A stretch of DNA of 64,000 nucleotides from Promethearchaeota archaeon. Lineage in GTDB: Archaea > Asgardarchaeota > Lokiarchaeia > Sigyniarchaeales > SOKP01. This document shows, piece after piece, positions 10,353-23,272 of this stretch. Made by a program: the position numbers and the translations under genes. The notes beneath the pieces are model-generated. The model made no database searches. It was not told the DNA's origin and saw only the letters and a program-made list of their open reading frames with translations. The stretch is from the NCBI GenBank assembly GCA_048938895.1, contig JBHLLU010000004.1:1721-65720 (forward strand), written 5' to 3'. The first letter of the stretch is position 1. Each line of letters begins with the position of its first letter.

Positions 10353-10364
10353 TTTTTTTTTTTT
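10353..10364 (+). terminator. Oligo-T tract (T12) after the transglutaminase-like gene, abutting the convergent GTPase gene stop
   Basis: T12 on the plus strand 18 nt after the stop at 10335. It overlaps the TAA (minus strand) of 10363..11829. Confidence 0.4.
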
Positions 10365-11829
10365 AAATATAAGTGTGTATTAGTTCTATTAGATTTTTAG
10401 AAAAATCAGGAAGAAACTTTTCAATCTTTTGAATTTGAAGAGATTTTTCTATAAATAGAAGGAGATATAAATTATATTTTTCTACCTGAATTTTCTTAAA
10501 GACAATCTTTTTTGATTCATCAGCAATTCCAGAAGATACTAGAAAATCCTTTTTTAAAATTTTGAATTCTTTAAAAGTGCGATATAATTCTTGGAAATGT
10601 GGTGCTGAGATTTCGAAAAATTTCTTAGATACTTCGTCCTTTGAATAATTTGATAAAATAATTCCATTCTCATTTAATAGCAAAATTGCATCCGAATTGG
10701 TTTTCTTAGCAAATTTCTTTAATTGCGTCCTGAATAATTCTCGATTAGGACTTAGTTGTGATAGCCCAAAAGAGTAGGCTGTTACAAGACTCCAATGATC
10801 AAAAATACTAGTCTGAAAGATTTTAATTAAAAATCTGTCAGAGTTCTTCTCAATTTCATCTGCTATTGTTTCTAAGCTCTGAAAAATTTCTTTTGAGCCC
10901 TTCAAGTCAGGATCAAATTTATTTAGGCATACAACAATTGGGGGGTACTCTTCTAAATCAATTAAGGAATTAACAATTCTTCTAAAGAGTCCTAAAGCTT
11001 CCTCTATCCTTTCAACATCTTGTATGTCAATAAAGAAAAATATTAGATCTACATTATATAAGTACAATTTGCTTTGTTCAAGGAATCTATCTCGGTATTG
11101 TTTTTGACCTGCAAGATCCCAAAGAGAGATCACTGAATTTTGTTCTTCAAATAAGTTTTCCTCAGTTCGCTCTACTCCTCTTGTAGGTAAAGCTTTAATG
11201 ATCTCAGAATACCTTCGTCTAATTCCTAATAAGAAACTTGATTTACCTGCCTTATCTAATCCAGTTAATAATACTTTAATTTGTCTCCTTGCTGAGAATG
11301 GATCTTTTAAATCTTTTGTAAATTCAAATAACTCACTTCTAAGATCGGACATAAACCGATTTAAATCGTTGAATTCTTTATTGCTTTGTATTTGGCTAGC
11401 AGTTTTATCAATAATGATTCTTAAATATTTCATGTTTTCATAAAAAAAGACTCTATCATCCTCACTTATTAATACGGTAATTGTGGCAGCTAATGCTTGA
11501 CCTCTTGCTTTTTCATCTGGAATAAGGAAGAAATAAGTTAATCCGTTCAATTTTAAATCAGGAAATGGTAAAATACCAAAATAGTTAACCCCTACGTCTG
11601 ATCCTTGTGAATCTTGATAAACAGAATCACCCATTAGCAAACTAATTGTTTTCATTGCGATTAAAAGTCCAGCTTTCTCATCTAAATCATTTGGCCAAAC
11701 AATCCTAGGTGTCGGACCTTTTTCATCAAAAATACTTAAAACGATTGCTTTAATGAGATTCGAATTATCAACGATATTTTTTTCTTCCTCTGCTTGTTTT
11801 ATATTTGATTTAGAGTTGTTATCAGTCAA
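10363..11829 (-). CDS. Arf/Rag-like small GTPase with N-terminal longin-like domain and C-terminal roadblock-like domain
   Basis: G1 LTGLDKAGKSSFL, switch I PTRGV, G3 LWDLAGQKQYR, G4-like LNKFD. The N-domain (IKAIVLSIFDEKGPTPRIVWP...YFGILPFPDLKLNGLTYFF) is shared with the proteins at 21761, 31992 and 33264. C-terminus: DAILLLNENGIILSNYSKDE... Confidence 0.7.
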   Translation of the reverse strand: MTDNNSKSNIKQAEEEKNIVDNSNLIKAIVLSIFDEKGPTPRIVWPNDLDEKAGLLIAMKTISLLMGDSVYQDSQGSDVGVNYFGILPFPDLKLNGLTYFFLIPDEKARGQALAATITVLISEDDRVFFYENMKYLRIIIDKTASQIQSNKEFNDLNRFMSDLRSELFEFTKDLKDPFSARRQIKVLLTGLDKAGKSSFLLGIRRRYSEIIKALPTRGVERTEENLFEEQNSVISLWDLAGQKQYRDRFLEQSKLYLYNVDLIFFFIDIQDVERIEEALGLFRRIVNSLIDLEEYPPIVVCLNKFDPDLKGSKEIFQSLETIADEIEKNSDRFLIKIFQTSIFDHWSLVTAYSFGLSQLSPNRELFRTQLKKFAKKTNSDAILLLNENGIILSNYSKDEVSKKFFEISAPHFQELYRTFKEFKILKKDFLVSSGIADESKKIVFKKIQVEKYNLYLLLFIEKSLQIQKIEKFLPDFSKNLIELIHTYI

Positions 11830-14067: not shown

Positions 14068-14844
14068 ATGCTAAAGCTATACACAGAATCTTCCATAAAA
14101 CGCTTCTATACAGAAATTTATAACATCTTAAAAGATTCTGATTCCAAAATCACTGAAATATGGTGTGAAATTTCAGAGATCTCTTTTCTTAATGAGTTGG
14201 GAACAAATGAATTAAATAGGTTTCTGGAAAACTTTGATTATATCTCAATTAAAAGTGGAAATTATATTTCTTATGTAGTTATAGAGAAGATAATATTTAT
14301 TATAGATTGTATAAAATATCTAAAATATGATATTTACCAATTATCTGAAATTTTAGATTATAATGGTTTTGAAGCATTAGTAAAAGAAATTTTATCAAGA
14401 AATAATTGTCATACAACATGTAATTTTAGATTTTCCGAGAGTTCAAAATTAACAGATAAATCTCAGAGCCGATATGAAATAGATGTAATTGGGATTTATA
14501 GGAAATATATCTTAATCATAGATGCAAAGCAATGGAAACATAAAGATTCATATAGCGCTATTAGTAAGGCTGCTAATCTACAACTTGAACGCGTCAAAGC
14601 ATTAAAAAGAAATCCTGAATCTTTTTTCAAACTAGTAACATCAATATTGGGGAATAATGTAGAGATAAAAAAGTATTTACCTTACGTTCTTATTCCAATA
14701 GTCGTTACACTTGAAGAAAATAGTATTAAATTTAATGAAAATCACATTCCTCTTGTATCAATTTACGAATTCAATTCTTTTTTACAAGAATTTCAAAATA
14801 ATTTACAATATTTTAAATCAATTCAGATAGATAAAATAGGATAA
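14068..14844 (+). CDS. PD-(D/E)xK nuclease-fold-like (NERD/Mrr-like) hypothetical protein
   Basis: SRYEIDVIGIYRKYILIIDAKQWK fits an E-x-D ... D-x-K nuclease-type core. The rest is unrecognised. Confidence 0.35.
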   Translation: MLKLYTESSIKRFYTEIYNILKDSDSKITEIWCEISEISFLNELGTNELNRFLENFDYISIKSGNYISYVVIEKIIFIIDCIKYLKYDIYQLSEILDYNGFEALVKEILSRNNCHTTCNFRFSESSKLTDKSQSRYEIDVIGIYRKYILIIDAKQWKHKDSYSAISKAANLQLERVKALKRNPESFFKLVTSILGNNVEIKKYLPYVLIPIVVTLEENSIKFNENHIPLVSIYEFNSFLQEFQNNLQYFKSIQIDKIG

Positions 14845-14859
14845 TTTTTAAACAAAAAA

Positions 14860-15687
14860 TTATTGTTCCAAACCCATATAATACTTTATTTGCTTCTTTA
14901 TAACATTAATAGCAATAGAGATGATTCCACTTTTAACATTAGGATGAGAAAACAATATTAAAATCATATCCTTTAAACTCGGAGATTCTGTATCAATAGG
15001 AGCTAGATCTAGTACACCTTCAGTTCCTTTAACACTAATCGATTTTAGCGTCCCTGCGCTTAATCCATGAATTATATCCGACCCTATCATTGAAAGATTC
15101 ATCCCAATAGTATTGAATAGAGCCTCTGAAATTCTACTTGAGATTGCAGAGGCAAGCATTGTTCCATCAGTTTTAATTATTGCTGAAGCTTCTATTCGAG
15201 AATCAAGTGTAATTAATTCATTCAATATTTCATTCATACTTGAAGGGGGTATTTTCTTTTCAGGTGCTTTCCTAAGAGGGGGTTCTGGAGTTTGTGAATC
15301 TAATTTTTTTACCGATATCTTTTTTGAAAGAAAACTTAAGACCTCCGTCATATCTTTTTCCAATCTTTTTTGCTTGGAAGACGTTTCTACAGATTCTGCA
15401 GATTTAGTGGGAATTGGTACTAACGATGGTTTTGAGTTTTTGTCCTCATCCTCAAGAATTGATTGTTTAAGTTCTGAAAACGCATCAGATATAGAATCCT
15501 TTTTTGAAGAAAGAATTGAACTTTGAAATGGTTTTGGTGTGATTTCTTGTAAAACCTGGCTTTCTTCTTCATTAACTTCTTCAAAATCATTTGTAATTGC
15601 AGTGAAAGAATTCTCTTCAATAGCTTTAGTACTGATTGTAGGTATTTTGTTAAGCTTTAAATCTTCTTCTTTTGGGATTTCTTGCAA
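14860..15687 (-). CDS. Roadblock/LC7 (MglB-like) domain protein with long acidic/Ser-rich N-terminal linker; probable N-terminal zinc-ribbon extension to 15879
   Basis: The C-terminal ~110 aa (LITLDSRIEASAIIKTDGTMLASAISSRISEALFNTIGMNLSMIG...GTLKSISVKGTEGVLDLAPI) show the Roadblock/LC7 pattern. The listed start is TTG. The same frame is open upstream to 15879 and encodes CQNCG...CRKCG. Confidence 0.65.
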   Translation of the reverse strand: MQEIPKEEDLKLNKIPTISTKAIEENSFTAITNDFEEVNEEESQVLQEITPKPFQSSILSSKKDSISDAFSELKQSILEDEDKNSKPSLVPIPTKSAESVETSSKQKRLEKDMTEVLSFLSKKISVKKLDSQTPEPPLRKAPEKKIPPSSMNEILNELITLDSRIEASAIIKTDGTMLASAISSRISEALFNTIGMNLSMIGSDIIHGLSAGTLKSISVKGTEGVLDLAPIDTESPSLKDMILILFSHPNVKSGIISIAINVIKKQIKYYMGLEQ

Positions 15688-15879
15688 TTCAACATGTTGG
15701 CTGATTGGTTCTACATTGGTTTCTTGTTGAATTTTTTTTTTCGTCTTTTTATCTTTTTTTGATTTAGAGGAAATAGGGAGTAGCGCACCACACTTTCTAC
15801 ACGTACGGTTTACTGCTTCGTTGTTTGTTGTCCCACAATTTTGACAAATGATAATAGTATGTATTCTCCTCCATGAATT
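15688..15879 (-). other. In-frame upstream extension of the Roadblock gene, encoding a zinc ribbon but lacking ATG/GTG/TTG
   Basis: Codons read NSWRRIHTIIICQNCGTTNNEAVNRTCRKCGALLPISSKSKKDKKTKKKIQQETNVEPISQHVE and then the TTG at 15687. An in-frame TAG lies at 15880..15882. An ATG at 15872..15874 is in another frame. A GGAGG lies just upstream of ATA/ATT/ATC codons. Confidence 0.5.
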
Positions 15880-16043
15880 CTAATTACAAAAAATTGGTAA
15901 AACTAATAAAATTAATAAAATATTAAGATTCTTTTAATTTCTGTATAAATTATAAATACAAATTTAGTGTTATTAATATTTCCAACATTAAATTAACAGT
16001 ATTTAATATTTCGTAAGTAATCTAAAAAGGGCTGTGAATTTTT

Positions 16044-17018
16044 TTATCTATATAAGATCTCTTTCAATATATTAGCAAATGTTTCAAAATCTTCTTTTTG
16101 AAAAACCGGGTCATCTTTGAGCAATAATAGATAATAAGGAGTCGAATCTTTTTTCAAGGTGATCTGTTTAAAAATGAAATTCTTTCCAAACCTTTGAAGA
16201 ATCATTCTATCTTCATATCTACTTTCTTGTACACCTGTATATTGTAGAGAATCAGAAAGAGTAAGGAAATATGGAGTTGAAGCTGAAAGTAAATGTTTAG
16301 TTTCATCATTTTTATAATAGGACCCAATAACAAGGGAGTTATCATCAATAACAACTACACCTTCAGAATCTATTTTCTTGGCAAATTCCAGTATAGTCTT
16401 CTCAATCAATTCTGATTTGGGATAGAGACTAAGCATAATTTCCGACATTGCTCGTATGATGGAACTAAAATCATAAATCGAGGTTTCATAAAAGTAAAGT
16501 TCTTTATAATCGGTAGCTTTCTTTACCTGCTCTTTTAAATCTATACTAAGATCTCGCATTTCATTTGGGGCACCTCTTCTTAAAGCAGGATCAAATTTGT
16601 GAAGGAAAATATAGATAGGTGGTTCAATTTCTAATTCTCTGAACTGATCAATAACATCTTTAAAATAACTCATTGCTTCCGGGATTCGAGGCTTATTTTG
16701 AACATCGATAACATAGATAGCAATTTCAGTACCATCAAAAAACTTACCTGGATTCTTTAAATAAGATATTCTATAACTAATTTGTCCCCCTAGATCCCAT
16801 TCTGCAATTTCTTTCCCTAGAAAATCAAAAACTCTCCTTTGGGCACCCCTAGTGGGTGAGAGCACTGCAATCTTCGAAAATTCTCTCTGAAGAGAAAGGA
16901 TAATGCTAGTCTTTCCTGCATCGTCAAGTCCCGTGAATAAAAGCTTAGATGGCTCTGGTTTCTGTTCTTGTTCTTCCTTTTTCAGATACAATATTGATTG
17001 TTTTAGATCCTTCTCCAA
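16044..17018 (-). CDS. Arf/Rag(Gtr)-like small GTPase with C-terminal roadblock-like domain
   Basis: G1 FTGLDDAGKTSII, PTRGA, G3 EWDLGGQISYR, G4-like LHKFDP. C-terminus: SEGVVVIDDNSLVIGSYYKNDE...YYLLLLKD. TTG start, with an in-frame TGA 4 codons upstream. Confidence 0.7.
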   Translation of the reverse strand: MEKDLKQSILYLKKEEQEQKPEPSKLLFTGLDDAGKTSIILSLQREFSKIAVLSPTRGAQRRVFDFLGKEIAEWDLGGQISYRISYLKNPGKFFDGTEIAIYVIDVQNKPRIPEAMSYFKDVIDQFRELEIEPPIYIFLHKFDPALRRGAPNEMRDLSIDLKEQVKKATDYKELYFYETSIYDFSSIIRAMSEIMLSLYPKSELIEKTILEFAKKIDSEGVVVIDDNSLVIGSYYKNDETKHLLSASTPYFLTLSDSLQYTGVQESRYEDRMILQRFGKNFIFKQITLKKDSTPYYLLLLKDDPVFQKEDFETFANILKEILYR

Positions 17019-17112: not shown

Positions 17113-18468
17113 TTACATGGTAGTTTGGATAAATAATTTGAAATCTTCATATTTATTAATTTCTACAGGATTTGGATATTCATTCTTGTTTTGAATGATC
17201 TCTAGGGTTTTGGGTAACTTTGGTTTCAATTTAATTAATGAAATAATTTCTTCAGGAAATTTCGCTGGATCAGCAGTTTCATAAGTAATTGATTTAAGAT
17301 TATCTTGATAAGGATTCTTAGTACGATATTTCTGAAGTGCAGCCCACCCGACAGCTCCATGTGGCTCGATAATTTTATCAAATTTGTTATAGAACTCTAC
17401 TATTGTTTCTTTTGTTAATCCATTATTTATTGAATAGGAATCGATAATAGATCTTAACTCTTTCATATTAGGGAGTTTATGGATGTATCCTTTTTCATCA
17501 ATCTGTCCTTCAAATAAATCAAATATACGGGCTAAATTACTGGGGTTACCAACGTTCATAGCAGATGATAAACAATTTTTGGAGGGATTGATTGGTTCAT
17601 AAATCCCTGAATTTAGAAATTTTGGAAATTCATCATTTTCATTAACTGCAGAAATAAAGATTTCTACAGGTAAGCCCATCTTATATGCAATAATTCCTCC
17701 CGTAAGATTACCAAAGTTGCCTGAAGGTACTGAAAAAATAACCTTTTCATCTTGATTTTTAACAATACGAGAATAACTCCAAAAATAATAAATAATCTGT
17801 GGTAGTAATCGACCCAAATTAATAGAATTTGCAGATGATAGGTTAAGCTCTCTTAAATCTTCATCTGCAAAAGCTGTTTTTATTATTTTTTGACAATCAT
17901 CGAACTTTCCATTAATTCCTATAGCAATCACATTTTTACCTAAGGTAGTCATCTGTTTTCTTTGAAGATCACTTATCTCATTTTTAGGATAGAGTACAAT
18001 AACTTTAATTCGTGACATTTTATGCATTGCTTGAGCTACTGCACCTCCAGTGTCTCCAGATGTTGCGGTTAATATAATTATTTCTTTATCTTCGAGTGAA
18101 AGGAAATATTCCATAATCCTAGCTAAGACTCTCGCTCCAAAATCTTTAAAACTACAAGTTGGACCTTTACTTAGATAGCAAAGATAATCATTACTCTCAA
18201 TGTTGTCTATTTCTATATCAAAGTTTAACGCCTTTTTAACAATCTCTTTTAAATCATCCTTTGGGATTTGTTGATTAAGGATTTTTTGGAGAATCTGTAA
18301 GGCAATTTCCTGCAAGCTTAGATTTTTAAAATTAAATATATCTTGAGTAGGAAATTTAGGGATTTTGTTTAACATATATAATCCTTTATCTAAAGCTTGT
18401 CCCTGTAAAACTGCAGTCTTAAAATCAACATCGGGAGTATTATAATTCGTCGAGTGAAATTTTATCAT
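17113..18468 (-). CDS. thrC: Threonine synthase
   Basis: PLP-lysine motif GPTCSFKDFGARV, TATSGDTGGAV, SANSINLGRLLPQ. The length is typical of long-form ThrC. Confidence 0.85.
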   Translation of the reverse strand: MIKFHSTNYNTPDVDFKTAVLQGQALDKGLYMLNKIPKFPTQDIFNFKNLSLQEIALQILQKILNQQIPKDDLKEIVKKALNFDIEIDNIESNDYLCYLSKGPTCSFKDFGARVLARIMEYFLSLEDKEIIILTATSGDTGGAVAQAMHKMSRIKVIVLYPKNEISDLQRKQMTTLGKNVIAIGINGKFDDCQKIIKTAFADEDLRELNLSSANSINLGRLLPQIIYYFWSYSRIVKNQDEKVIFSVPSGNFGNLTGGIIAYKMGLPVEIFISAVNENDEFPKFLNSGIYEPINPSKNCLSSAMNVGNPSNLARIFDLFEGQIDEKGYIHKLPNMKELRSIIDSYSINNGLTKETIVEFYNKFDKIIEPHGAVGWAALQKYRTKNPYQDNLKSITYETADPAKFPEEIISLIKLKPKLPKTLEIIQNKNEYPNPVEINKYEDFKLFIQTTM

Positions 18469-18486
18469 AGTATCTTTCCTACTGCT

Positions 18487-19005
18487 CTATTCTATTAACT
18501 CATTGATTTTGTTAATTACCTCTAATGGCGTTTTAACTCCATATATCATGTCATTTCTTCTATCATCTAATTTTTGATTTGCAATATTAGAAGACCAACC
18601 GGGAACACTAGATAAAGCGATTAATGGTTTATTATAAATCCATGCAAAACAGATCTCAGATAATGTTCCTGCCTTACCACTTATGGCTAAACATATATCT
18701 CCAGTAAGGACGACTACAATATTTCTTGCTTGAGAGAATGGACAAGGAACTATAATATCTACATATTTATTTGCTCTGCTTTTTTCAGTATAGGGAATTA
18801 TACCAATAGTTAAACCTCCTTTCTCTTTTACACCCTTACATATTGCCTCCATCACTCCTGAAAGCCCCCCACAAGCCACTGCGTAATTATTTAATGCTAA
18901 TAATCTCCCGATTTCTATTGTTTTTTCTTCTATTTTTTTATCAATATCACTTGCTCCAATTACAGAAACTATTGCCTTAATATCCTTTTTAAAATTGAAA
19001 TTCAT
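18487..19005 (-). CDS. TIGR00725/LOG-like Rossmann-fold protein
   Basis: VSVIGASD...EIGRLLALNNYAVACGGLSGVMEAICKGVKEKGGLTIGIIP is the pattern of the TIGR00725 (lysine-decarboxylase-like/LOG) family. Confidence 0.6.
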   Translation of the reverse strand: MNFNFKKDIKAIVSVIGASDIDKKIEEKTIEIGRLLALNNYAVACGGLSGVMEAICKGVKEKGGLTIGIIPYTEKSRANKYVDIIVPCPFSQARNIVVVLTGDICLAISGKAGTLSEICFAWIYNKPLIALSSVPGWSSNIANQKLDDRRNDMIYGVKTPLEVINKINELIE

Positions 19006-19039
19006 GATTATGGATCATATTTGGTTTATAATTCTACTT

Positions 19040-20053
19040 TTAAATGCTATATCCTCTCTTTATTGAAATATCAATCATGTCATTTAATATAGCTGATGCT
19101 GCCTCGAAACCACCAGCTCCTCTTCCCATTATTAGTAACGGGCCTGCATATTTTGTTTCTAATTCTACTGCATTCAAATTACCACTAATATTTAGCGAAG
19201 AATGTTTATCAATCAACCGGGGTTCGACAATAAGTTCGTCATTTTCTGCAATAGCGAGATGTTTAATAACGAAACCATCTGTATCTGCTAATTCAATAGC
19301 ATGTGAGGTTACTTTTGAGATGCCCTCCACTCGTACATCACTAATTTTTTTAGACCATCCTAATAATTCGTTTGCTAATATTACCAACTTTCCAGCAGCA
19401 TCGTAGCCTTCAATATCTAGGGTAGGATCTGTTTCGGCATATCCTAATTCCTGGGCTTCCTTTAAAGCTAATGAAAATTTAATCCCTTCTGAAGTCATTC
19501 TACTTAAAATGAAATTAGATGTGCCATTTAATATTGCTTTTATGCGAAGAATTTCATTTCCAACTAAGACTTCTTTGATCTTTAAAGCTGGAACACAACT
19601 TGCCACTGTCGCTTCAAACTTTATAAAACACTTGTTTTCCGCAGCTAACTTCATTATTTTTTCATATTCAAGATAAAATGGTCCTTTATTAGAGGAAACC
19701 ACATCAATATGACTATTTAAAGCTTGTGTAATATGTGTTAATCCTGGTTCCCCCGTGTTTGGGTTTGTAGGAGTTGTTTCTACGCAAATATTTATATCTA
19801 GCCTAGAAATTGAAGGGAGCAAGCTAACCTTATTTTCCCAATAAGGTAAATTTCTAAAATTTTCATTAGCATCAATGACTTCTTTTAAGTCAATTCCTGA
19901 TGGATTAATAAGAGCACCATCCTTTTCTAAAATTGAATTCACTATTAAATCTAAATTAAATTTTTGTTTCAAAAATTCTTTTTTTTCTAATAATAGTTGC
20001 AGTAGACTTGTCCCTACTAATCCTTTTCCAATTAGACAAACATTAACTTTCAT
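19040..20053 (-). CDS. hom: Homoserine dehydrogenase
   Basis: N-terminal Rossmann VCLIGKGLVGTS, LNGTSNFILSRM, EAQELGYAETDPTLDIEGYDAAGKLVILAN. Confidence 0.85.
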   Translation of the reverse strand: MKVNVCLIGKGLVGTSLLQLLLEKKEFLKQKFNLDLIVNSILEKDGALINPSGIDLKEVIDANENFRNLPYWENKVSLLPSISRLDINICVETTPTNPNTGEPGLTHITQALNSHIDVVSSNKGPFYLEYEKIMKLAAENKCFIKFEATVASCVPALKIKEVLVGNEILRIKAILNGTSNFILSRMTSEGIKFSLALKEAQELGYAETDPTLDIEGYDAAGKLVILANELLGWSKKISDVRVEGISKVTSHAIELADTDGFVIKHLAIAENDELIVEPRLIDKHSSLNISGNLNAVELETKYAGPLLIMGRGAGGFEAASAILNDMIDISIKRGYSI

Positions 20054-20152
20054 TTTTTCAATTACATTTAATTTAATTATAGTAAAATCTTATACAGAAA
20101 TATTGTCGGATGGATAGCATTCTACTGTTTTAATATGATTTTTACAATTTTT

Positions 20153-20644
20153 CTAACTAGTTATTAATAATAGGTTTTTTTCTTCACAAATGTTCCTAAG
20201 CTCCTTAATGAGCTCGCTTTTATTCATTTCTTCAGGGAATTCAATTTTTAATTTAACATTACTAACTTCTTCTAAATCTGTAAATTTGGCTTGTAATTCT
20301 AATACATTGATATCTCTAGATGCTAACCTTTTAATAGTATCCATAACATCAGTATCAAAAACATGCCCTGTTAAAAGAACGGTTATTAATTTCTTTTCAA
20401 TACCATAGGTTATTTTCTCAATTTGAATATTTCTTTCTTTTAATTCCTTTTTGATTTTGTTTAAACTCACTTCTCGAATTGATTCACTTAACTCGAAGGA
20501 TATATTAACAGGGATCATATTATATATTTTCCTATCATGAAAATGGAGTATGCCATATATATTTCCACCATTTTTTGAAATAGGTTTTATTAGTTCAATT
20601 AAACTTCCAGGAGTGTCAGGGATTTTCACTTCTAGATTTATCAT
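20153..20644 (-). CDS. ACT-domain (amino-acid-binding) protein upstream of hom
   Basis: Two beta-alpha-beta-beta-alpha-beta-like halves, starting MINLEVKIPDTPGSLIELIKPIS. The position directly upstream of hom is typical for archaeal ACT regulators. Confidence 0.55.
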   Translation of the reverse strand: MINLEVKIPDTPGSLIELIKPISKNGGNIYGILHFHDRKIYNMIPVNISFELSESIREVSLNKIKKELKERNIQIEKITYGIEKKLITVLLTGHVFDTDVMDTIKRLASRDINVLELQAKFTDLEEVSNVKLKIEFPEEMNKSELIKELRNICEEKNLLLITS

Positions 20645-21760: not shown

Positions 21761-23272
21761 ATGATTATGGAAGAATTATTTAAATCTTCGATTATTAGAG
21801 GTTTAATTTTTAGTTCTTATGGTGATCTAGGGCCACAACCCATTTATGCATGGCCAAAATATTATACAGATAAGGAATTAGAAACTGTAAGAGAAAAAAG
21901 AGAAAAACAAAATCTTCTTACTCTATCAACTAGAGACGTGACACAAATTTCGATTAAAAATCTTAGTTTATTTATAAGTGATAGAGCTTTCATCCCTGAT
22001 ATAGACATTCAAAAACTTCAATATTTTGCAATCCTGCCTTATCCTGATTTTAATGTCACCTCTTTAACTTATTTTCACTATATTAGTACGAATTCTTCCA
22101 ATTCTCAGGTACCAACAGCTTTTTCAGTATTAGTTAATGAAAACAGTAGAAGCTTCTTGTATAATAATATAAATAGAATTAAACCGATTATAATCGCTTT
22201 TTTTGAATCTTTTGATAAAGAACTCGTTGATGATTTTCCGGCTCAAGAGAGAATTTCACCGTTGTTTCACAATTTATTAAAAAATTTGATTGAGATCGAA
22301 AAAAATCCCTCAACACCAATTACAACTCACCGAAAGATGAAAATTTTATTTGCCGGGCTTGATGATAGTGGAAAAACTAGTTTTTTACTTTCGGTTGATC
22401 GAAAATTTAGTAAACTTATTGGATTAAAACCTACTACAGGAGCGAGTATTAAATCAATAGAAGCTTTGGGTGCTACAATCTTTCTTTGGGATTTAGGAGG
22501 GCAGTTAGCTTTTAGGAAGAAATACATCAGTAAAGCAGAAATTTATCTATATGAAGCTGATTTACTATTTTACTTTATTGATATTAGAAATAAAGTTAGA
22601 TTTGAGGAAAGTATTGAATATCTTCTGAATTTAAAAAATATTTTACAGCAATTTAATCAAAGTACCCCAATCATCTATATCTTATCAAAAGGGGATCCAG
22701 ATATTATTAATACAGGAGATATTATCGAAAACATTGAAAAAGTCAAGCTCAAGCTAAATGAAGTTTCTTCTGATGAACCTCTTGAAATTTATGTAACAAG
22801 TATTTTCCAAGTATTTACTATCCTTAGAGCTTTCTCATCTGGAATCTCAAAATTAAGCCCTAATAGAAATTTGATTAATCATAATCTTAAAAATTTTTCT
22901 ATAAAGACTAACACATACTTAACACTATTATTAAGCGCAGATGGATTAGTTCTCGCTGATTTTTATTCACCAAAAGCAAAAAAACTTACAAAAATACCCA
23001 ATTCCGAAGAGATTGTCAATATATTTGAAGTGACCGCTCCTCAATTTACGATGTTGTTTAAGATTTTTTCCAGATTTAAAGCTTTAAAGGAAGAAGAAGC
23101 TGTTTTTAAAGTTGCAGATTCAGTTATACTATTTAGAAAAGTAAAAATAGCAGATAATGATATGTTCATCTTATTTTTGCTTGATAATGAAAAAAAAAAA
23201 GAGAAAATAAATGTAATGTTATTAGAATTTCTAGATCAAACTCAAGATCTATTATTAAGATATATAGCTTAA
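21761..23272 (+). CDS. Arf/Rag-like small GTPase with N-terminal longin-like domain and C-terminal roadblock-like domain (paralogue of 10363..11829)
   Basis: G1 FAGLDDSGKTSFL, PTTGAS, G3 LWDLGGQLAFR, G4-like LSKGDP. N-domain: IIRGLIFSSYGDLGPQPIYAWP...YFAILPYPDFNVTSLTYFH. C-terminus: TYLTLLLSADGLVLADFYSPK. An A11 run at 23190..23200 sits in the CDS. Confidence 0.7.
   Translation: MIMEELFKSSIIRGLIFSSYGDLGPQPIYAWPKYYTDKELETVREKREKQNLLTLSTRDVTQISIKNLSLFISDRAFIPDIDIQKLQYFAILPYPDFNVTSLTYFHYISTNSSNSQVPTAFSVLVNENSRSFLYNNINRIKPIIIAFFESFDKELVDDFPAQERISPLFHNLLKNLIEIEKNPSTPITTHRKMKILFAGLDDSGKTSFLLSVDRKFSKLIGLKPTTGASIKSIEALGATIFLWDLGGQLAFRKKYISKAEIYLYEADLLFYFIDIRNKVRFEESIEYLLNLKNILQQFNQSTPIIYILSKGDPDIINTGDIIENIEKVKLKLNEVSSDEPLEIYVTSIFQVFTILRAFSSGISKLSPNRNLINHNLKNFSIKTNTYLTLLLSADGLVLADFYSPKAKKLTKIPNSEEIVNIFEVTAPQFTMLFKIFSRFKALKEEEAVFKVADSVILFRKVKIADNDMFILFLLDNEKKKEKINVMLLEFLDQTQDLLLRYIA

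Follow-up and report, generated by a model that had tools for sequence, protein, structure and literature searches.

Does a roadblock protein encoded beside a Rag-like GTPase in an Asgard archaeon serve that GTPase? Asgard genomes encode scores of small GTPases together with roadblock and longin proteins, and genome layout allows a regulator to be assigned to almost none of these GTPases (Tran et al. 2024, PMC10933270; Liu et al. preprint). The question is raised by a 64,000-nucleotide (nt) stretch of DNA from a Promethearchaeota archaeon (Lokiarchaeia; GenBank assembly GCA_048938895.1, contig JBHLLU010000004.1), hereafter the window, with a G+C content of about 30%. Here the gene of a Rag/Gtr-type GTPase, RagL, is followed on the minus strand by the gene of a zinc-ribbon/roadblock protein, ZnRB, and a sequence-only reading of the window had taken the two for a cognate GTPase/regulator pair. 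The two genes prove to be persistently linked across the window's family, and ZnRB is a plausible accessory roadblock adaptor of RagL, a role that we put at just short of an even chance.

The GTPase is made up as follows:

16044..17018, minus strand: RagL, Rag/Gtr-type GTPase of 324 residues with a TTG start (open reading frame, Pfam, PDB, Foldseek, synteny).
16419..16955, minus strand: G domain of RagL, about residues 22–200 (motifs read from the translation).
16047..16418, minus strand: C-terminal roadblock domain (CRD) of RagL, about residues 201–324 (AlphaFold2 (AF2) model, Foldseek).

RagL is a member of the Rag/Gtr family, in which a Rag-type G domain is joined to a C-terminal roadblock domain. 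The gene, recognised as Rag-like in the sequence-only reading, matches Pfam Gtr1_RagA (1.1e-25, 90.9 bits, cut-off 22) and aligns over its full length (residues 4–320, 288.9 bits, E 4.5e-85) with LokiRagO, deposited as PDB 8YL2 under the title 'homo tetrameric RagA-like small GTPase from Asgard Lokiarchaeota' (released 2025-09-10); RagA and Gtr1 were also aligned. HKxD and TSI[WY]D-like motifs are marks of Rag GTPases. RagL displays the P-loop GLDDAGKT, PTRG, WDLGGQ, HKFD (Rag-type G4) and TSIYD (Rag-type G5), and its G-domain motifs are invariant in 34 orthologs. In the AF2 model, the G domain is followed by an α-β-β-α-β-β-β-α domain (helices 201–215, 238–260 and 308–322; strands 220–224, 230–235, 271–276, 279–286 and 295–300), and a Foldseek search with the whole chain matches 8YL2, RagA/C and Gtr1/2. 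RagL is thus of an already known, crystallised kind. A literature search found no paper on 8YL2, 9JUE, 8ZLA or LokiRag, and the biochemistry of LokiRagO is known from the entry title only.

The window genome carries a 52%-identical paralog of RagL on another contig, and in the relative G135 this paralog adjoins RagL. LokiRagO scores higher with RagL than with the paralog (249.1 bits). At locus L108 (G000:C33, 2319..5780), two paralogous genes for multi-pass membrane proteins immediately precede the paralog; the cytoplasmic C-termini of these proteins show, as judged by eye, a longin/roadblock-like strand-helix pattern.

The second gene has four segments (residue numbers refer to the stop-to-stop frame, which is open from 15879):

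14860..15855, minus strand: ZnRB gene, 331 codons from ATT (15853..15855), stop at 14860..14862 (frame, homolog starts).
15775..15855, minus strand: N-terminal zinc ribbon, IIICQNCG..x11..CRKCGALLP (cysteine pattern, conservation, AF2).
15724..15774, minus strand: polybasic arm, ISSKSKKDKKTKKKIQQ, net charge +7 (basic in all aligned homologs).
15238..15723, minus strand: linker, mostly disordered, with conserved motifs and two helices (alignments, AF2).
14863..15237, minus strand: roadblock domain, residues 215–339 (phmmer, AF2, Foldseek).

The ZnRB chain thus runs from a CxxC-x11-CxxC ribbon through the +7 arm and the linker to the C-terminal roadblock domain. The zinc ribbon, a probable feature in the sequence-only reading, holds up: its cysteines (C12/C15/C27/C30) are in frame with the rest of the protein and conserved in homologs, C27 and C30 being almost invariant, and the ribbon is kept in homologs that begin with MIICQNCG. 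PF13240 is precomputed on several ZnRB homologs, the ribbon has a weak L40e-like match, and AF2 gives two short strands and a block-mean pLDDT (predicted local distance difference test score) of 80–83 over residues 11–30. The linker had been described as Ser/Glu/Lys-rich and probably disordered. Its composition (44% Ser+Glu+Lys over residues 36–214) and mostly low pLDDT agree with this description, but the linker is not featureless, because it contains conserved motifs and two predicted helices. The motifs ELQEIP, VLQEITPxPFQSSIL, ISDAFSELKxS and KQKRLEKDMTEVLSFLSKKISVKKL are invariant or nearly so in alignments of 16 and 103 sequences, and the AF2 helices span residues 130–143 (ISDAFSELKxS) and 163–187 (KQKRLEKDMTEVLSFLSKKISVKKL), with a block-mean pLDDT of 88 at 171–180.

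The assignment of the roadblock domain comes from structure prediction and orthologs, because Pfam (E ≤ 0.1) gave no Robl_LC7 (PF03259) match for the window's ZnRB, nor did NCBIfam give a roadblock match. The C-terminal ~125 residues, of which the sequence-only reading had recognised ~110 as Roadblock/LC7, match the Thorarchaeota roadblock protein 7F8M in phmmer (E 0.0025). In the AF2 model, residues 215–335 (block-mean pLDDT 83–93) have the order α-β-β-α-β-β-β-α, and Foldseek places MK-D1 Roadblock3 (9JUE), the Thor roadblock (7F8M), 7YH1, LAMTOR2/p14 and MglB at the top (E 1e-7 to 1e-6, probability 1.00). The ZnRB ortholog of the more distant family f29 passes Pfam Robl_LC7 (29.2 bits versus a cut-off of 23), and JGI annotates ZnRB homologs as 'Roadblock/LC7/MglB family'. 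On the predicted structure, the domain can be assigned with confidence to the Roadblock/LC7/MglB superfamily as a full roadblock fold. The best structural matches, Asgard stand-alone roadblocks (7F8M, 7YH1, 9JQ8/9JUE; E about 1e-7, 18–23% identity), share the full topology including both terminal helices (PMC10933270). Unlike these single domains of ~120 residues, ZnRB has a zinc ribbon, a polybasic arm and a conserved linker in addition. The protein is specific to Lokiarchaeia, present in a single copy per genome and conserved at 50–60% identity over its full length, linker motifs included, which points to purifying selection on the protein as a whole. A literature search found no description of the ZnRB architecture or of its persistent linkage to a Rag-like GTPase.

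The start of ZnRB is unusual. Upstream of the ribbon there is no in-frame ATG, GTG or TTG, and the codon aligned with the MIICQNCG start of the homologs is ATT, with GGAGG 12 nt upstream. Among 57 distinct family members, the aligned start codon is TTG in 22, ATG in 14, ATA in 11, ATT in seven and GTG in three; 13 of the 18 ATA/ATT cases are without an in-frame canonical start upstream. In one near relative (L038), ATG occupies exactly the bases of the window's ATT. The homolog alignment, the codon census, this relative and the absent canonical starts make ATT the best reading, and translation most likely begins there. Initiation at the out-of-frame ATG (15872..15874) followed by a +1 frameshift was considered and rejected: this codon is AAG in two near relatives, and the aligned-codon evidence favours ATT. 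Weak or non-canonical starts are habitual in the family, and gene callers truncate ZnRB; the called proteins P0002–P0004, P0007 and P0020 are without part or all of the ribbon. The ortholog at L086 (G218:C180, 158..1841) has a stretch of masked bases and an RMRVL repeat within its linker, which precludes a confident reading of its length and frame.

A single adjacency of a roadblock gene and a small GTPase gene is weak evidence, because the genome has dozens of small GTPases. The repetition of this adjacency across genomes exceeds chance. Of 135 sampled genomes from the window's GTDB family (f1), 121 were found to carry ZnRB, and most of those without it are metagenome-assembled genomes with a completeness estimate below 90%. 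Among 22 f1 genomes, 21 have RagL immediately upstream of ZnRB and on the same strand, the 22nd being split by contig ends, and RagL is likewise upstream of ZnRB in 44 of the 45 NCBI loci that have an upstream flank (42 with no intervening gene); the two sets overlap and yield 63 distinct ZnRB sequences, of which 59 come with a complete RagL. Taken together, about 60 distinct f1 genomes show the arrangement. In the sister family (f2), two genera retain the pair. In G216, the order is RagL, ZnRB and a second Rag-like GTPase (GTPase2), and the upstream genes differ; in G218, it is LOG, ThrC, RagL, ZnRB. Conservation of the pair in related genomes, which the sequence-only reading had named as a check, was therefore found within f1 and in part of f2. 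The RagL–ZnRB junction is the most stable of its block: around it, NrdD is present, absent or inverted, and a NERD-like gene that converges on ZnRB is displaced in three genomes. In comparisons of distance matrices, ZnRB correlates best with RagL (r = 0.81–0.83; partial r = 0.62, against 0.34–0.42 with other neighbours), a mirror-tree signal that is suggestive only, as species-tree kinship was left in and no significance test was applied. The case for a partnership, which consists of junction stability, the best distance correlation, roadblock folds in both proteins and full-length conservation of ZnRB, is partly supported.

Several observations weigh against a partnership, among them the order of the surrounding block, the structure of the spacer between the two genes and the distribution of ZnRB in other lineages. 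The block contains, in addition to RagL and ZnRB, the following genes:

10363..11829, minus strand: GTPase2, Rag-like, 488 residues, with a longin-like N-terminal domain, a G domain and a C-terminal extension (Pfam).
14068..14844, plus strand: NERD-like convergent neighbour, winged helix-turn-helix plus PD-(D/E)xK (NERD/DUF234-like), 258 residues (weak Pfam match, motif).
21761..23272: GTPase3, Rag-like, 503 residues, with an N-terminal extension ahead of the G domain.

Gene order across the whole ~20-kb block (4319 to 25140) is maintained in 21 relatives and extends to housekeeping genes, so the RagL–ZnRB linkage may be inherited order. That the adjacency is neutral, a relic of a slowly rearranging block in which ZnRB serves another small GTPase such as GTPase2 or one encoded elsewhere, is a substantial possibility, though short of probable. 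GTPase2 (Pfam Gtr1_RagA 1.1e-24; the longin-like assignment of its N-terminal domain is based on a weak Folliculin match) and GTPase3 flank the locus and are syntenic in all relatives. With three Rag-like GTPases in the block, position alone makes a GTPase neighbour likely. In G216, GTPase2 is directly downstream of ZnRB, and it is a possible alternative or additional ZnRB partner. What speaks against neutral order is that the RagL–ZnRB junction survives where neighbouring junctions break, and that this pair has the top partial correlation of evolutionary distances. Elsewhere in the block, RagL and the SLOG gene are separated by a thrC/homoserine dehydrogenase/ACT-domain cassette (17113..20644). 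Some relatives have this cassette and others do not, so that it is not a conserved neighbour of the Rag-like GTPase.

The two genes are separated by a spacer:

15856..16043, minus strand: RagL–ZnRB spacer, 188 nt, AT-rich (sequence, alignment with near relatives).

The distance from the RagL stop to the ZnRB start, given as ~160–350 nt in the sequence-only reading, is 188 nt to the ATT and 356 nt to the TTG called by the open reading frame finder, and the spacer measures about 120–250 nt in relatives, which does not suggest a tight operon. A T5 tract follows just after the RagL stop. A promoter-like block, AAATATTAATAA..TTATACAG (AAATATTAATAAcActAAATTTgTAtTtATAAtTTATACAG; 15900..15990, minus strand), is conserved in four to five near relatives, and the spacer sequence that flanks it carries indels among them. 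This block resembles an archaeal TATA region and is probably the ZnRB promoter region. In two relatives (L041 and L051), opposite-strand genes sit between RagL and ZnRB. The long AT-rich spacer, the conserved promoter-like block and these insertions suggest that RagL and ZnRB are probably separate transcription units. The spacer has no match in Rfam, and a scan of it for sigma-70 promoters and hairpin terminators, which is not suited to archaea, gave nothing above shuffled sequences.

ZnRB and RagL also occur without each other. The Rag gene of genus g65 matches 8YL2 almost residue for residue (672.8 bits), and its locus (L105, G224:C284, 2853..6426) has the order GTPase2, NERD-like gene, RagO. 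Because this near-identical gene sits in the same gene order, gene comparison supports LokiRagO as the positional ortholog of RagL. The RagL homolog of the closed genome G219 was also considered as the source of 8YL2 and was rejected, as its sequence mismatched whereas the g65 gene matches. LokiRagO and RagL share the G-domain-plus-roadblock architecture and the order GTPase2, NERD-like gene, Rag; they differ in that the window's family has ZnRB and the LokiRagO genus does not. In g65, 110 nt are found where ZnRB sits in the window's family, and a ZnRB profile search of four g65 genomes, one of them closed, found no ZnRB anywhere. The same profile recovers the ZnRB of G218, and a smaller family profile recovers ZnRB in many other genomes. 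The g65 site looks like a clean deletion, or one where ZnRB was never inserted. In a further genus, g7, no ZnRB was found and a RagL homolog is kept. The absence from g65 fits an MK-D1-based survey, in which GTPase genes did not, as a rule, share operons with roadblock genes (Tran et al. 2024, PMC10933270); this survey, too, favours neutral order. Furthermore, the homotetramer of the 8YL2 title implies that this type of GTPase assembles without a separate roadblock protein.

In more distant Lokiarchaeia (families f29 to f32), ZnRB is found away from GTPases. In f29, the genes ahead of it encode a SNAP-like TPR protein (Pfam SNAP 1.4e-11) and a JAB/MPN protein, a different, trafficking-flavoured neighbourhood. 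The two f29 loci, L030 (28..6140) and L029 (541..5073), are of higher G+C and encode a longer ZnRB (441 residues); the tail of their JAB/MPN protein is a long coiled coil. In f30–f32, ZnRB is shorter (~250 residues) and has the ribbon and roadblock domain as elsewhere, and the NERD-like gene lies directly upstream of it, 69–281 nt away and in the same direction. No GTPase was found within several kb of ZnRB in the f29 and f30–f32 loci, and the RagL homologs of f30–f32 (33–36% identical) are on contigs other than that of ZnRB. By this distribution, ZnRB is older than its linkage to RagL, which, like the persistence of RagL without ZnRB in two genera, favours neutral order. The cognate pair of the sequence-only reading accordingly stands as a linkage kept in f1 and part of f2; as a strict unit it does not, given the ZnRB losses, the probably separate promoters and the GTPase-free ZnRB loci.

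The same loci bring forward the NERD-like protein, whose Pfam NERD and DUF234 matches are below threshold and which carries the motif EIDVIG..IIDAKQWK. If this protein were the real partner of ZnRB, a nucleic-acid enzyme would be the target that the roadblock domain regulates or localises. The gene of the NERD-like protein is next to ZnRB both in f1, with a convergent gap of 15–60 nt, and in the three GTPase-free families f30–f32, and comparison of these loci makes it the older conserved neighbour of ZnRB; the zinc ribbon, with its weak L40e-like match, and the polybasic arm could bind nucleic acid. The gene is, however, a widespread single-copy Asgard gene (267 of 400 genomes), and no roadblock neighbour was found in 20 of its loci outside Lokiarchaeia. 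It does not adjoin ZnRB in f29 or G218, none was found in G216, and convergent genes cannot be co-transcribed. We know of no precedent for a roadblock–nuclease pair. As a deeper partner of ZnRB the NERD-like gene was rejected, since it adjoins ZnRB only within Lokiarchaeia and is elsewhere a widespread gene with no roadblock neighbour in those 20 loci; a functional pairing of the two proteins is improbable enough to be given little weight.

The reading of ZnRB as an accessory adaptor of RagL can be put as a model that builds on the domain anatomy, family assignments, linkage and losses described above, and in which the binding of the two proteins, the way they meet and the function of the N-terminal arm are our inference. 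The two proteins would be produced from separately promoted, persistently linked genes. ZnRB probably dimerises through its roadblock domain, and the dimer would dock on RagL. Most likely, the ZnRB roadblock would stack on the C-terminal domains of RagL, in the way that the LAMTOR2/3 roadblock heterodimer of Ragulator/EGO lies under the Rag C-terminal domains; a contact with the RagL G domain, as made by MglB with MglA, is the less likely geometry. Through the zinc ribbon, the polybasic arm and the conserved linker motifs and helices, the complex would be linked to a third component, for example a membrane surface, a nucleic acid or another protein. ZnRB would be an accessory modulator or adaptor and not an obligate subunit, since there are lineages in which ZnRB has been lost and the GTPase retained.

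The pairing of a roadblock protein with a GTPase is a known kind of system, and roadblock dimers are known docking platforms of small GTPases, as in MglB–MglA and LAMTOR–Rag (Tran et al. 2024, PMC10933270). Similar to MglA/MglB and the archaeal and actinobacterial COG2018 pairs, the window has a stand-alone roadblock gene beside a small GTPase gene, with a fold that matches MglB. Unlike in those pairs, the GTPase is of Rag type with its own roadblock domain, the genes do not appear to form a tight operon, and ZnRB has a 200-residue N-terminal extension that MglB does not. As a sub-case of the partner model, ZnRB could be an MglB-type GTPase-activating protein, its homodimer clamping the RagL G domain and speeding GTP hydrolysis. 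The Foldseek match to MglB is about as good as that to LAMTOR2, RagL has its own catalytic Gln (in WDLGGQ), which is needed in MglA-type systems, and Arg249 in the β2-α2 loop of ZnRB is almost invariant within the family. This arginine is absent in f29 and in some f30–f32 orthologs, the neighbouring GTPase is not MglA-type, and RagL carries a roadblock domain of its own, which in Rag–Ragulator is the usual docking site for further roadblock dimers. A GTPase-activating role is decidedly unlikely.

The likeness to Rag/Gtr and Ragulator extends to the Rag-type G domain and C-terminal roadblock of RagL, to the resemblance of the ZnRB roadblock to LAMTOR2/p14 and, loosely, to the long arm of ZnRB, which is partly helical and otherwise disordered and recalls LAMTOR1. 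The differences are considerable. Ragulator has five subunits with several roadblocks, whereas here there is one stand-alone roadblock gene and a single ZnRB per genome. LAMTOR1 is lipidated, whereas ZnRB is without a lipid-anchor or acylation motif and begins with a zinc ribbon and a polybasic stretch. Eukaryotic Rags are A/C heterodimers, whereas RagL-type proteins form homo-oligomers, according to the 8YL2 title. In addition, Asgard archaea have no TOR pathway (Liu et al. preprint). A bolder version of the adaptor model would make ZnRB the archaeal functional counterpart of Ragulator, a homodimer under a LokiRagO-type oligomer whose arm and motifs recruit it to a membrane or sensor, and thus a pre-eukaryotic module lost in the cultured MK-D1-like lineage; we consider this version unlikely.

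The RagL–ZnRB pair is one of the few persistent linkages of a GTPase and a roadblock protein in Asgard archaea, and it involves a Rag-like type for which a crystal structure is available. Since the genus of LokiRagO is without ZnRB at the exact syntenic site, a partner of this kind would never be found there, and any role of ZnRB must be accessory. If RagL and ZnRB bind each other, this would be evidence that the scaffolding of Rag GTPases on roadblock proteins predates eukaryotes.

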